8,984 nt of DNA, taken from IMG/VR virus record IMGVR_UViG_2600254977_000009; one strand, given 5' to 3'. A program made the translations under genes and the position numbers. A model generated the notes under the pieces. That model ran no database searches, was not told the origin of the DNA, and saw only the letters and a list, made by a program, of their open reading frames with translations. Shown in pieces: positions 2,345 to 5,587 of the stretch (the stretch's first letter is position 1; every line of letters begins with the position of its first letter). Origin of the DNA: a virus. Taxonomy: Duplodnaviria > Heunggongvirae > Uroviricota > Caudoviricetes.

Positions 2345-2909
2345 TTATCTGTCGATACCCCAGCACGCCAGCGCGCTCTCCTGGTCACGACGGGATACCT
2401 GACCGTAGCAGTTGTTTGAACGAATACGGCAGTCTCTGCCACCGTCCTTAATCCACCAGCGAATCGCCTCACACGCTCCCCTGCGATCACCTGCATTAAT
2501 TCGTTTATAAAACGTCGACGGGAAACACTTACCGGGACCAATGTTGTACGGACAGAATGACGCGATCCCCGCTTTCTGGGGTTCGCTCAATGGCACTTTG
2601 ATGTTTTTCTCCACCCATGCCAGCGCCTTATCACGCTCAATGGCGTTGACCTGGTCGCATTTTTCCTTCGACAGTTTCATACCGGGAAAAACGGGTTTTC
2701 CATCCACCATCGTGGCCCCCCGACAGATGGTCCAGTTGCCGGAACCATCGCGGTATGCCGTAGTGTGGTTACCCTCTTTTTCATCCAGAAACTGGTCAAG
2801 TATCNNNNNNNNNNNNNNNNNNNTGGTCAAGTATCTGAGGAGCTGATGCGCCTGCTCCAATCAGCGCCAGAACTGCAGCTGACAGGCCGTATTTGATTTT
2901 TGCGTTCAT
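2345..2909 (-). CDS. R: SAR endolysin (phage lysozyme, T4-lysozyme/GH24-like fold), reading frame interrupted by a 19-N assembly gap
   Basis: Minus-strand ATG at 2909..2907 gives MNAKIKYGLSAAVLALIGAGASAPQILDQ..., a Gly/Ala-rich weakly hydrophobic signal-anchor-release (SAR) N-terminus. After the N-run the ORF-track frame continues ILDQFLDEKEGNHTTAYRDGSGNWTICRGAT...CWGIDR, with an E...D...T spacing that looks like the catalytic triad of phage lysozymes. The two halves are in different frames only because of the artificial N-run. Confidence 0.85.
2805..2823. other. Assembly gap (19 N) flanked by a duplicated 12-13 nt sequence
   Basis: ctggtcaagtatc immediately precedes the N-run and tggtcaagtatc immediately follows it. 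This is the signature of overlapping contig ends joined by a scaffolding gap rather than missing biology. Confidence 0.9.
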
Positions 2910-3014
2910 GGATATTTATCAGGATTTATCGGTTTCTGAACCCTGGATATGTTTATCTGTCCCGGCCTGTTGAATCAGGCGGGGAAAAGGTAAAGACAAT
3001 CAAGAGGATTATTT

Positions 3015-3287
3015 ATGGACAATAGCACCATTTCTCTACAGGAGTTGCTCGACTGCATTTCCAGGCTTCGGGATGATGTAAATGCCCTCACTGTTGCATT
3101 TTCACATCTGGCCTTATCAATTCCCAGGGAGCAAATGCTGCCAACGCTGGCATCCATTCATTTTGAATCACGCAACCCCAAATGGTCCCAGGAACAACAA
3201 AATTCTTTCAAGTGGCTGGCGGCATTGCTGGAAGAAAATTATGCTGGCAAAACTACCATTTCGGCGGAGTCTTCAGGGAACCAGTAA
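3015..3287 (+). CDS. Hypothetical 90-aa protein on the opposite strand inside the lysis cassette
   Basis: ORF-track protein MDNSTISLQELLDCISRLRDDVNALTVAFSHLALSIPREQML... The ATG at 3015 is preceded by AAGAGGA at a 7-nt spacing (caatcaagaggattatttATG). Its 3' end overlaps the 3' end of the convergent YdfR-like ORF by 35 nt, so one of the two may be wrong or degraded. I do not recognise the protein. Confidence 0.4.
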   Translation: MDNSTISLQELLDCISRLRDDVNALTVAFSHLALSIPREQMLPTLASIHFESRNPKWSQEQQNSFKWLAALLEENYAGKTTISAESSGNQ

Positions 3288-4085: not shown

Positions 4086-4313
4086 TTATGGCCTGGAATG
4101 CCGGGCCAGTACGATGACGTAGTACCAATCCGGCTCAGTTGCACCACTGACCACCACATCACCTTCTGCTGCAATCGCCTGCATCAGGGTATAAGGGGTT
4201 ATGGCCACCGGACTACCAAACGGCTGCCAGCCCTCCTTCAGTTTTTGTGTCAGTCGTTTCGCAAGGTCTGACGGCGATACCGCCCTGACCACGTCATAGT
4301 GTTTAAATGCCAT
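4086..4313 (-). CDS. Small conserved prophage protein (75 aa), possibly DUF1737-like
   Basis: ORF MAFKHYDVVRAVSPSDLAKRLTQKLKEGWQPFGSPVAITPYTLMQAIAAEGDVVVSGATEPDWYYVIVLARHSRP. The ATG at 4313 is preceded by a strong SD (GGGAGGATTC then ATG). The family assignment is from memory of small proteins found upstream of holins in Stx-type phages and is uncertain. Confidence 0.65.
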   Translation of the reverse strand: MAFKHYDVVRAVSPSDLAKRLTQKLKEGWQPFGSPVAITPYTLMQAIAAEGDVVVSGATEPDWYYVIVLARHSRP

Positions 4314-4506
4314 GAATCCTCCCGGCCGGGATAATATTGTGAGTAAAATAAGGAGCGGGCTGAAGTCCGGAAGTTACAGGACAATGGCAGAAGAGAGACG
4401 ACAGCCCGCAATTCGAAAAAGACCGCGCAGTTGCGCAGAGTGATTACTATGGGGTATTATTCGCCAGCTGAAATATTACTTCACGTTTTATTGTTTATTC
4501 CTTGCC

Positions 4507-4535
4507 GCCCGCGTCTCCCAGCGCGGGCTTTTTTT
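4507..4535 (+). terminator. Strong plus-strand intrinsic terminator (antisense to the late operon)
   Basis: GCCCGCG-tctcccag-CGCGGGC followed by TTTTTTT. A perfect 7-bp GC-rich stem with an 8-nt loop and a 7-T run on the plus strand. Confidence 0.6.
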
Positions 4536-4544
4536 GCCCACAAG

Positions 4545-4776
4545 AAAACCCCTCCGGAGAGGGGCTAAAGCCGCGTATCTGTATCATCATGCACATGGTG
4601 CCGGGTGCCTCCCGGTGAGTTCAGCCCGGTGCCACTAAACCCGCGTCATTCTCGTTTTGATAATCAGAGATTATACCGTCACCAGTCGCCCCTCCGCTCA
4701 GGGGGATTCACCATGCGAAATTTTTTTAACAAATGCCCAGTCTGACAGGCAACTGTCAACTTACTGAATTGTGAGC
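4545..4776 (-). repeat. Copy A of a ~220-230 bp block-conserved element; on the minus strand it ends in an intrinsic terminator
   Basis: Shares identical or near-identical blocks with copy B: cccctccggagaggggct, catggtgccgggtgcctcccggtga, gcccctccgc(t/a)cagggggattcaccatgc, ttttaacaaa, gtcaac, ctgaattgtgag. The blocks are separated by divergent spacers of unequal length. Minus-strand 3' end: CCCCTC-tccg-GAGGGG then TTTTCTTG (plus 4541..4564). Confidence 0.7.
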
Positions 4777-4810
4777 AACATAGCATTTAACGGGGAACCT
4801 GTTTTCTGCA

Positions 4811-4839
4811 GTAAAAAGGCCCACCGGAGCGGATGGGCC
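4811..4839 (-). terminator. Candidate intrinsic terminator between the two repeat copies
   Basis: Minus strand GGCCCA-tccgctccgg-TGGGCC followed by TTTTTACTG (plus strand gtaaaaaggcccaccggagcggatgggcc). Confidence 0.45.
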
Positions 4840-5030
4840 TGGAAGGATAGCGGTCATGTGATGCCGGTTTCCCGGTAACTCAGCACCGGTATCTGAGTCA
4901 ACGTTTTCTCTACTGGGTCATTTCCGATACGCCCTGCCTGCTGACAGGCTTTCATCACATCTGAAAATATAGCACCCTGACTGATACTGTAGTACCTAAG
5001 GTTCCAGAAACTGTGATGTATCCGGCACAG

Positions 5031-5245
5031 AAAAGCCCCTCCGGAGAGGGGCTGGAGAGTGGCGCTATGTGCCATTGCATGGTGCCGGGTGCCTCCCGGT
5101 GAATTCAGTACCAGCACCTGAATCCGCGATTATCCCATATACCTACTCGCTGATTGCCCCTCCGCACAGGGGGATTCACCATGCCAGTTTCTTTTAACAA
5201 ACTCCCCGCAAACCAGACAACAGTCAACCGCCTGAATTGTGAGAC
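5031..5245 (-). repeat. Copy B of the block-conserved element; on the minus strand it ends in an intrinsic terminator
   Basis: Same conserved blocks as copy A in the same order. Minus-strand 3' end: GCCCCTC-tccg-GAGGGGC then TTTTCTGTG (plus 5027..5052). Short ORFs that can be drawn through the two copies differ in frame and length, which argues against coding. Confidence 0.7.
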
Positions 5246-5288
5246 ATTTAAAAAAAAGCCCGCAAAAGCGAGCCAGGGAAAATAAGTG

Positions 5289-5365
5289 TGGCGCGTTGTA
5301 CTGGATTCGAACCAGTGACCGATTGCTTAGAAGGCAATTGCTCTGTCCGGCTGAGCTAACAACGC
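5289..5365 (-). tRNA. argO: tRNA-Arg (anticodon UCU), canonical cloverleaf
   Basis: Reverse complement GCGTTGT-TA-GCTC-AGCCGGACA-GAGC-A-ATTGC-CTTCTAA-GCAAT-CGGTC-ACTGG-TTCGAAT-CCAGT-ACAACGC-G-CCA. All four stems pair perfectly and the anticodon loop is CU-UCU-AA. Gene name is by analogy to the ileZ-argN-argO cluster of lambdoid/Stx prophages. Confidence 0.9.
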
Positions 5366-5378
5366 AGGATACAGATAA

Positions 5379-5455
5379 TGGACCGCCTTCGGGGACCCGA
5401 ACTCCGCGCAACCAGCTTCGAAGGCTGGCGCTCTTTCCTGATGAGCTAATGGCGG
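5379..5455 (-). tRNA. argN: tRNA-Arg (anticodon read as UCG), with non-canonical features
   Basis: Reverse complement CCGCCAT-TA-GCTC-ATCAGGAAA-GAGC-G-CCAGC-CTTCGAA-GCTGG-TTGCG-CGGAG-TTCGGGT-CCCCG-AAGGCGG-T-CCA. D and anticodon stems are perfect. The acceptor stem has one A:A mismatch, the T-stem one A:C mismatch, and the T-loop is TTCGGGT rather than TTCRANY. Position between the two good tRNAs supports a real or slightly degenerate tRNA. Confidence 0.6.
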
Positions 5456-5462
5456 TATGTGA

Positions 5463-5538
5463 TGGTGGCCCTTGCTGGATTTGAACCAGCGACCTGGCGA
5501 TTATGAGTCGCTCGCTCTCACCACTGAGCTAAAGGGCC
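5463..5538 (-). tRNA. ileZ: tRNA-Ile2 (anticodon CAU, lysidine type); a tRNA-Met is not excluded from sequence alone
   Basis: Reverse complement GGCCCTT-TA-GCTC-AGTGGTGA-GAGC-G-AGCGA-CTCATAA-TCGCC-AGGTC-GCTGG-TTCAAAT-CCAGC-AAGGGCC-A-CCA. Very similar to E. coli ileX/ileY (tRNA-Ile2) as I recall it. It is the first gene of the prophage ileZ-argN-argO arrangement. Confidence 0.85.
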
Positions 5539-5587
5539 GGGAGCAGAATAATAATGGTGCGTAATTAATTCTGCAATCTCATCCGTT

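Follow-up and report, generated by a model that had tools for sequence, protein, structure and literature searches.

The window analysed here is the 8,984-nucleotide DNA of the IMG/VR virus record IMGVR_UViG_2600254977_000009 (Caudoviricetes), and all positions refer to this whole stretch unless another record is named. Its minus strand carries three small RNA (sRNA) genes in the order B, M, A, with gene B at 5027..5185, gene M at 4811..4961 and gene A at 4540..4717. We consider it probable, at a little over 80%, that these are three tandem, independently transcribed, Hfq-dependent sRNA genes of the STnc100/EcOnc05/PasD type, located in the moron slot of a lambdoid prophage. An original prediction, made from the sequence alone, had pointed to two copies of a repeated element, A (4545-4776) and B (5031-5245), as either a structured minus-strand RNA with an intrinsic terminator or a repeated protein-binding module. 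The former description has held, as both copies are full-length matches to the STnc100 family and covariation backs the helices, and the protein-binding alternative is not needed. However, the same reading of the locus overlooked both the third copy and a convergent partner on the plus strand.

Copies A and B are 71.5% identical in pairwise alignment and have in common six collinear exact blocks of 18, 25, 10, 18, 10 and 12 nt, which start at 4549/5036, 4594/5078, 4688/5156, 4699/5167, 4724/5192 and 4764/5232, respectively (A/B). For comparison, the longest exact match between A and 200 shuffles of B was 12 nt, with a mean of 7.5. The shared order of six blocks is therefore as originally described, and several of the blocks are indeed long, although the longest is 25 nt rather than 29 nt. 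The complementary segments CATGGTG (4594 in A, 5078 in B) and CACCATG (4709 in A, 5177 in B), located by sequence search, and two GC hairpins were also found where they had been placed. CATGGTG/CACCATG, CCGGG/CCCGG and CCCCT/AGGGG correspond to the P1, P6 and P2 helices of the Rfam model, respectively. Each copy ends on the minus strand in the expected GC hairpin and T-run, which form terminators at 4566..4547 (A) and 5053..5034 (B). Two hairpins in the middle of the element had been taken to be specific to each copy. This is correct for ataatc/gattat, which belongs to a cassette present in A only, but attcag/ctgaat of copy B is the family-wide P5 helix, which in A reads gttcag...ctaaac and thus carries a compensatory change.

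The family assignment of A and B is clear. When the whole window was scanned with Rfam, copy A matched STnc100 (RF02076; gathering score 47 bits, model length 206 positions) with 161 bits (E 4.6e-37, 4745..4536 on the minus strand, model positions 1-206), and copy B matched it with 136.3 bits (E 1e-30, 5213..5023 on the minus strand, model positions 1-206). Thus, in the Rfam comparison proposed at the outset, both copies score far over the threshold and are members of a catalogued sRNA family. We also mapped the Northern probes that Tree et al. 2014 list in their supplement (PMC4104026) onto the window. Because the EcOnc05 probe matches copy B at 35 of 35 positions (5121-5155, in the orientation of a minus-strand RNA) and the EcOnc06 probe at 34 of 35 (5108-5142), copy B is of the same sRNA type as EcOnc05, which was crosslinked to Hfq and detected by Northern analysis in E. 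coli O157 Sakai.

There is considerable experimental information on homologues of these genes. EcOnc05 was recovered by Hfq-CRAC (crosslinking and analysis of cDNA) and gives a Northern band of ~222 nt in strain Sakai (PMC4104026), EcOnc04, EcOnc05, EcOnc06 and EcOnc27 are Hfq-bound sRNAs of O157 prophages (PMC4104026), and EcOnc RNAs have been both recovered by Hfq-CRAC and detected on Northern blots (PMC4104026 supplement; PMC7873438). More generally, STnc100-family members have been verified by both methods (PMC4104026, PMC5331693, PMC7873438). Strain EDL933 has 11 transcribed STnc100 copies, one of them confirmed by Northern analysis (PMC5331693), and an RpoD signal from ChIP-exo (chromatin immunoprecipitation with exonuclease digestion) has been recorded at STnc100 promoters in Salmonella LT2. 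The STnc100 copy located 75 nt downstream of stx2B is the Hfq-bound EcOnc27, also called sRNA103, whose overexpression raises fimZ and espA transcript levels (PMC12370729, PMC12711010, PMC7873438; for EcOnc/sRNA103 see also Gruber and Sperandio 2015, as cited in PMC7873438 and PMC12711010). STnc100 has also been reported from outer-membrane vesicles.

The 254 bp between the two copies are not a spacer, as this interval is occupied by the third, diverged copy, M. Against RF02076 it reaches 30.1 bits (E 0.0015, 4984..4811), which is below the gathering score. We also built a covariance model, R1, from STnc100-type and PasD-type sequences only, with M left out. This model scores M at 40.8 bits (E 4.5e-8), copy B at 158.1 bits and copy A at 136.4 bits. 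The minimum free energy (MFE) fold of M has an 8-bp closing helix, three internal hairpins, a single-stranded tail and a terminator (z = -2.45). Its P1 helix, AUGUGAUG/CAUCACAU, differs from the family helix, GCAUGGUG/CACCAUGC, by four double changes that preserve pairing, and other helices are rebuilt in different sequence (P2 as GCCUG/CAGGC, P5 as GACUCAG/CUGAGUU, P6 as CCGG-GAAA-CCGG). These are followed by the 3' tail GACCGCUAUCCUUCCA and the gene's own terminator at 4840..4817. M is a third member of the STnc100/PasD superfamily that has kept most of its helices by compensatory changes.

Of 5426 complete E. coli genomes, 673 contain M, which comes in two variants (100% and 86% identity to the window sequence). 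The 86% variant resides in a differently organised prophage, again between two STnc100 copies (138 and 132.5 bits). In all 11 occurrences among the loci collected here, which come from two lineages, M is flanked by two STnc100-type genes, and the flanking members of this X-M-Y trio differ between lineages. Five sequenced E. coli phages carry M as well, under the label ‘hypothetical protein’, and RefSeq leaves it unannotated. Other tandem arrays, from viral contigs and genomes, include four consecutive copies in locus L127 (2270-3351, minus strand), and paired copies occur in L192 (1391-1838), L246 (3000-3440) and L158. Multiple PasA/PasD copies have been ascribed to repeated acquisition and not to tandem duplication (Zhu et al. 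preprint, 10.64898/2026.05.13.724894). We found no description of M or of the recurring X-M-Y trio in the literature, and this unannotated member and its three-gene array are minor, incremental additions to the known family.

The MFE fold of each of the three elements has a closing helix around internal hairpins, followed by the terminator hairpin. For comparative analysis, relatives recovered from viral contigs were grouped into 31 clusters, and removal of two false positives left 29 non-redundant variants. In a first alignment, made with MAFFT from 20 variants plus A and B (n=22) and with the Rfam helices mapped via copy A, 93.4% of cells pair, versus 40-53% when the partners are slid by 1-3 columns. 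Compensatory changes are present at four of seven P5 pairs and three of five terminator-core pairs, and P1, P2 and P6 are almost invariant and thus uninformative in this set. A second, model-based alignment includes diverged members (123 hits, 76 distinct). Here 96.3% of cells pair, a fraction inflated by fitting the alignment to the model structure, versus at most 52% when slid, and double changes occur at 24 of 33 pairs (5/8 in P1, 4/5 in P2, 7/7 in P5 and 8/8 in the terminator), with the rows containing M supplying those in P1 and P2. Both the slid controls and the independent MAFFT result agree in direction with this larger alignment. Because the double changes of the second alignment keep pairing and not sequence, selection acts on the RNA structure of the family, and the search for covariation among collected relatives that was suggested originally has returned compensatory changes.

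The 29 variants reveal a mosaic family, in which an invariant 5' module (GCAUGGUGAAUCCCCCUGnGCGGnGGGGC) is followed by an interior cassette, a P5-P6-CACCAUG segment, a 3' tail and the terminator. Both the interior cassettes and the 3' tails come in several unrelated kinds. In gene B, P1 encloses P2, the interior cassette, P5 and P6, and the tail CAAUGGCACAUAGCGCCACUCUCC leads into the terminator at 5053..5034. Gene A has a B-like scaffold with a longer interior cassette that includes the extra hairpin AUAAUC/GAUUAU, the tail UGCAUGAUGAUACAGAUACGCGGCUUU and the terminator at 4566..4547. Recombinant members such as L209 (1869-2042), with an A body and a B tail, L138 (3086-3261), with another body and an A tail, and L154 (5429-5622) and L148 (526-733), which join an STnc100 body to a PasD-type tail and terminator, indicate that modules are probably exchanged at the invariant blocks. 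In PasD, the experimentally inferred seed UGUGAG lies within the tail directly 5' of the terminator. By analogy, the tails of A, B and M may be their seeds and, because the three tails are unrelated, the array may comprise three regulators with different specificities and different targets. In a target scan of the whole window, covering both strands, the three tails gave only trivial self-antisense sites above shuffled controls.

The regions upstream of these genes are also conserved. Among 61 distinct upstream sequences, conservation is highest at TTTGTTAAAA, which ends 6-7 nt before the G of GCAUGGUG, and at TTGyCT, which lies another 17-18 nt upstream. Together these give the conserved pattern TTGyCT-N18-TGT-TAAAAr. 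The equivalent site of PasD-type copies reads TTGACT-17-TTAAAA, and the 5' end of PasD2 from RNA-seq (741157 in NC_011601) falls on the G of GCAUGGUG. From these patterns we infer promoters and 5' ends for the three genes. For B, the conserved upstream block (5186..5245, minus strand) would include a -35 element TTGTCT at 5220..5215 and TGT-TAAAAG at 5199..5191 (-10 element at 5196..5191), with a start at G 5184. The equivalent block of A (4718..4776, minus strand), in which the same positions are conserved as in B, would include TTGCCT at 4752..4747 and TGT-TAAAAA at 4731..4723 (-10 element at 4728..4723), with a start at G 4716. M has a possible extended -10 element, TGCTATATT, at 4974..4966 on the minus strand, which would place its start near 4961. 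The upstream TTGACA/TTGACT was considered as a -35 element and rejected, as it is 24 nt from the conserved TTAAAA and less conserved than TTGyCT. Upstream of the putative -35 elements there is another conserved block, CTCACAATTCAG(N4)GTTGAC (4753-4776 and 5221-5245, minus strand). Most STnc100-type copies have this block, whereas PasD-type copies lack it. It is wrongly spaced to serve as a -35 element, and it could be a binding site for a regulator.

The locus is the late region of a lambdoid prophage found in B2 extraintestinal pathogenic E. coli (ExPEC) strains such as UTI89. The interval 4400-5600 is 100% identical in the chromosomes of UTI89, S88, IHE3034, ATCC 11775 and other strains, and at least 80% of the interval is found in 318 of the 5426 complete E. 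coli genomes. On the minus strand of UTI89, the genes for RusA, the Q antiterminator, a small open reading frame (ORF), a DNA methyltransferase and three tRNAs precede the sRNA region, and those for a DUF1737/SASA esterase 5' fragment, holin, YdfR, lysozyme and Rz follow it. The Stx2a phage LC567834 has the same backbone, but with the Shiga toxin (stx) genes stx2A and stx2B, one STnc100 copy (153.8 bits) and then a full esterase gene. Pairwise BLAST aligns 5251-8730 of the window with the Q-to-tRNA block of this phage, 4545-4774 with its STnc100 copy downstream of stx2B (87% identity) and 4094-4313 with the first 220 nt of its esterase gene yjhS (94% identity). The tRNA cluster is the one that precedes stx2A in Stx2 phages, and the block upstream of A is nearly identical to that of the stx2-adjacent STnc100 copy. 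Because the flanks 5251-8730 and 4545-4774 align on either side of stx2AB, the 476 bp from 4775 to 5250 that hold B and M stand exactly at the position of the 1.3-kb stx2AB in LC567834, which agrees with the cargo-site location proposed originally.

The family as a whole is likewise associated with a specific prophage setting. Copy-A-like sequence is present in 2562 of the 5426 genomes, at 1-10 places each (median 1), and is absent from the other 2864 (53%), which is not the pattern of a generic repeat scattered through host chromosomes. Genomic contexts were sampled for four hits that span the range of identities. In three of them the copy follows genes for Q, RusA or DUF1133 and precedes those for the esterase and holin. 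The fourth is in a remnant riddled with insertion sequences, beside a fragment of DUF3927, a small gene found ahead of the sRNAs in several intact prophages. In the sampled contexts, the family is tied to one prophage position, the Q-to-holin interval. Furthermore, 110 phage records match copy B, and every one of them is an Escherichia, Shigella or Stx lambdoid phage. A genome-wide species scan with the 15-base pattern CATGGTGAATCCNCCT gave, among the matches listed, only chance matches in unrelated phyla, and the nine of these 121 listed matches that passed a loose second-motif filter all belong to unrelated taxa. The same pattern recovered family members when searched on viral contigs.

Downstream of A there is a candidate for a convergent sRNA on the plus strand (4431..4535), resembling EcOnc08/21/42. 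A plus-strand terminator at 4507-4528 faces copy A, a promoter-like site is located at 4307-4335 (plus strand), and the EcOnc08/21/42 Northern probe matches at 28 of 31 positions (4431-4461) in the orientation of a plus-strand RNA. The only Rfam signal for this partner is a weak OmrA-B-like match of 25 bits. The interval 4314-4544 is shared by 1367 E. coli genomes, and O157 strains have several copies of it. Such an arrangement has precedent, as ‘dyads’ of convergent Hfq-binding sRNAs occupy the moron site in at least eight Sakai prophages (PMC4104026, PMC7873438), and in Sakai Sp4 the peaks of EcOnc05 and EcOnc08 lie side by side and converge (PMC4104026). We consider the plus-strand partner to be a candidate EcOnc08-like sRNA.

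Three phage tRNA genes at 5289..5538 on the minus strand, with a CAT anticodon, Arg-TCG and Arg-TCT, were identified by ARAGORN, Rfam and the annotations of UTI89 and the Stx2a phage. The first of the cluster, with the CAT anticodon (5463-5538, minus strand), is called tRNA-Met by ARAGORN and tRNA-Ile by RefSeq, and the latter call presumably reflects lysidine modification, as in the ileZ-argN-argO cluster of Stx phages. A terminator scan places an intrinsic terminator at 5257..5274 on the minus strand, which ends the tRNA cluster directly upstream of B, and there are four minus-strand terminators between the tRNAs and holin (5274..5257, 5053..5034, 4840..4817 and 4566..4547). On the other side of the array lies the 5' fragment of a nanS-p/SASA sialate esterase gene, the DUF1737 part (4086..4313, minus strand), defined by the UTI89 annotation (‘DUF1737 domain-containing protein, missing C-terminus’) and by the LC567834 comparison. 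Only the first ~220 nt of this gene are left in the window, and a full gene of ~1.9 kb follows the sRNA in Stx2 phages and in E2348/69. Because the offset between UTI89 and window gene coordinates shifts from 601 (from 3253 upward) to 632 (below about 2909), the source of the window and UTI89 probably differ by an indel of ~31 bp near the 5' end of the lysozyme gene (~2860-3253).

Taken together with the literature, these findings support a proposal for how the array might function. The parts of it that we observe directly are family membership, selection on the RNA structure, the genomic position and the terminators, and they place the array after a Q-controlled late promoter and its tRNAs and ahead of the lysis genes. 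Each gene would be transcribed from a sigma-70 promoter into an RNA of ~150-180 nt that ends at a Rho-independent terminator with a U tail. The 5' part of this RNA would be a multi-helix scaffold, in which P1 closes around P2, an optional cassette hairpin, P5 and P6, and the 3' part would be a largely single-stranded tail of 15-30 nt before the terminator. Literature on homologues supplies the precedents for expression, Hfq binding and seed position. By analogy with the PasD seed, the tail may pair with trans-encoded mRNAs (or sRNAs) on Hfq, and the three sRNAs would be expressed from the lysogen without prophage induction. Upon induction, Q-modified polymerase may read through the sRNA terminators to the lysis genes. 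This proposal predicts the promoters and 5' ends, a seed role for each of the three tails, their targets and the read-through.

Several observations weigh against this proposal and limit our confidence. The evidence for expression comes from homologues in other strains and not from this locus. Among STnc100-type members, the reported effects are limited to the shifts in fimZ and espA transcripts when sRNA103/EcOnc27 is overexpressed. A promoter scan of the window returned no consensus promoter on the minus strand, and the proposed -10 elements TAAAAA and TAAAAG lack the usual final T. Because homologue Northern sizes of ~177-247 nt exceed the 158-178 nt predicted from our start sites and the Rfam model begins ~30 nt upstream of these sites, the 5' ends are uncertain. 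The U tails are short (4-5 U) and suboptimal for Hfq. Stability of the single sequences is modest relative to shuffles (z = -1.2, -1.7 and -2.45), which is why a comparative test was needed, and in the 76-member alignment, whose fit to the model structure inflates pairing, P6 is backed by conservation and one-sided changes only.

Other functions for the array were also weighed. The RNAs might act through their invariant 5' scaffold as a sponge or protein-binding decoy, in the manner of AgvB and AsxR, and not as seed-bearing regulators of mRNAs. P1, P2, P6 and their loops are almost invariant among STnc100-type copies, beyond what pairing needs, the same type of locus encodes anti-sRNAs, and the occurrence of STnc100 in outer-membrane vesicles could be viewed in the same light. 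However, we think this unlikely, as the seed of the PasD homologues maps to the 3' tail and they have many mRNA partners on Hfq, the scaffold sequence varies freely in M and PasD with the helices kept, and no AgvB- or AsxR-like sequence is present in the window. The terminators raise a different question, namely whether the array works in cis as a terminator or insulator stack that silences the lysis genes in the lysogen and is passed only by Q-modified polymerase, with the RNA as a by-product. Four consecutive minus-strand terminators between the tRNAs and holin, downstream of Q, are what such a device would require. Yet a terminator needs ~30 nt, and the ~120 nt of covarying 5' scaffold, the conserved promoter-like blocks and the abundant Hfq-bound transcripts of homologues would be left unexplained. 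Such a role could coexist with sRNA function, but as a replacement for it we consider it quite unlikely.

The mosaic nature of the family suggests yet another explanation, in which the blocks serve at the DNA level as homology anchors or mosaic joints for the exchange of cargo such as stx, and RNA structure is incidental. The recombinants L209, L138 and L154 and the lineage-dependent flanks of the M trio are in keeping with this proposal. It is nevertheless improbable, because the helices P1, P2 and P5 and the terminator have double changes that maintain pairing and not sequence, and M keeps most helices with little sequence identity; recombination at the blocks is better viewed as a consequence. 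Protein coding has even less in its favour. Candidates are the plus-strand ORFs at 4605-4745 and 5069-5197 (46 and 42 amino acids) and a minus-strand ORF from the AUG of GCAUGGUG. These ORFs do exist, the NCBI annotation pipeline (PGAP) places a partial ‘hypothetical protein’ (a pseudo-coding sequence, or pseudo-CDS) over copy B, and ribosome footprints have been seen on some EDL933 STnc100 copies. However, in the two plus-strand ORFs the conserved blocks are translated in different frames into unrelated peptides, which is why the element was originally judged not to be a decaying gene, and we agree. The minus-strand ORF has 11 codons in A, 25 in B and 8 in PasD and is reduced to AUG-UGA in M, and conservation tracks base pairing while ignoring codon position. 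Coding on either strand was rejected for inconsistent frame and length, and small protein-coding genes are a highly improbable explanation.

The suggested link to enterobacterial repetitive intergenic consensus (ERIC) elements, also called intergenic repeat units (IRU), with no specific function at this site, has a negligible chance of being correct, because GTGAATCCCC does equal the first 10 nt of the ERIC core as rebuilt from the standard ERIC1R/ERIC2 primers, beside a small GC hairpin and with 14 of 16 nt matching in copy A, but the likeness stops after 10-16 nt, the distribution and copy number differ (2562 of 5426 genomes, median one place) and all sampled copies lie in prophage late regions or a decayed remnant. 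ERIC/IRU elements have a core inverted repeat of ~44 nt within an element of ~127 bp and are dispersed in intergenic regions of the core genome.

It seems appropriate to question the value of describing yet another set of prophage sRNA genes. As a discovery, the array carries little weight, since it belongs to a catalogued family at a known position and its sequence is identical in hundreds of genomes. There are, however, practical consequences for annotation. We found no noncoding RNA annotation at these sRNA genes in the RefSeq records examined, and antisense pseudo-CDS or ‘hypothetical protein’ features cover them in the window (5069-5194, plus strand), in L003 (3301-3699, minus strand) and in phage records, such that RefSeq leaves the genes blank or under spurious calls. 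Similarly, the current Rfam model misses diverged relatives such as M and the PasD-like sequences. Furthermore, UTI89-like ExPEC strains carry a three-sRNA array in the slot that holds Shiga toxin in enterohaemorrhagic E. coli, which offers a test case for studying these sRNAs without confounding by toxin or induction. We also raise, tentatively and as a rather doubtful extension, the possibility that a fixed STnc100-M-STnc100 cassette replaces the toxin cargo, that M represents a third deep lineage, and that the superfamily is a modular scaffold with an exchangeable seed. If true, the M lineage is currently annotated by no model, and recombination at invariant blocks would shuffle the tails and interior cassettes, allowing prophages to quickly re-target host regulation.

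Several known systems can be compared with the array. The anti-sRNAs AgvB and AsxR (RF02702, RF02703) occupy the same moron site, convergent to STnc100-type sRNAs, but belong to a different family of 51-60 nt with a conserved 3' part of ~42 nt (..GTATCTCATGC..TTGCCCGAACCCA.TCGGGC). Neither model matches at E up to 10 in 4314-4560 or at E up to 1 window-wide, and the best local alignments of AgvB and AsxR sequence with the window score 13 and 12 at unrelated sites. PasD1 and PasD2 of enteropathogenic E. coli E2348/69 are Hfq-dependent and Northern-verified, with the seed directly 5' of the terminator (PMC8550237, Pearl Mizrahi et al. 2021), and PasD homologues have many mRNA partners on Hfq and a seed mapped to the 3' tail. 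They score 38-41 bits on RF02076, below threshold, and 64 bits on R1. PasD has the same architecture, the same slot (Q ... sRNA ... esterase/holin) and the same 5' module, GCAUGGUGAAUCC, as the genes in the window, whereas it has other sequences in the interior, tail and terminator. In alignment only the 5' module and the helices are shared. Neither the seed CCUUGUGAG, which lies 5' of the terminator in PasD, nor the PasD probe sequence is present in the window, the probe matching 12 of 24 positions at an unrelated site.

The EcOnc sRNAs of E. coli O157 have several features in common with the array. Beyond the probe matches in copy B, exact for EcOnc05 and with one mismatch for EcOnc06, there is the same moron site and the same arrangement with a convergent EcOnc08-like partner, and the promoter block and tail of copy A resemble those of the stx2-adjacent copy of the Stx2a phage. 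The probe for the tail type of Sakai EcOnc27 found no match in the window. In contrast to the O157 loci, the prophage studied here is from B2 extraintestinal E. coli and lacks stx, it has three tandem members where O157 has one, and the partner is EcOnc08-like and not the anti-sRNA AsxR. The closest correspondence is with STnc100 itself. The Rfam model starts ~30 nt upstream of the 5' end suggested by PasD, but A and B match it at full length, with the same helices and terminator in the same prophage setting, and nothing essential differs. The family of A and B, its structure model, its position at the stx site, Hfq binding by identical or near-identical homologues and the convergent partner are all already known, and the STnc100/EcOnc05 identity of these two genes is a previously described, ordinary feature. 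A common origin of PasD and STnc100 has also been proposed already (Zhu, Shabalina and Storz 2026 preprint, 10.64898/2026.05.13.724894).

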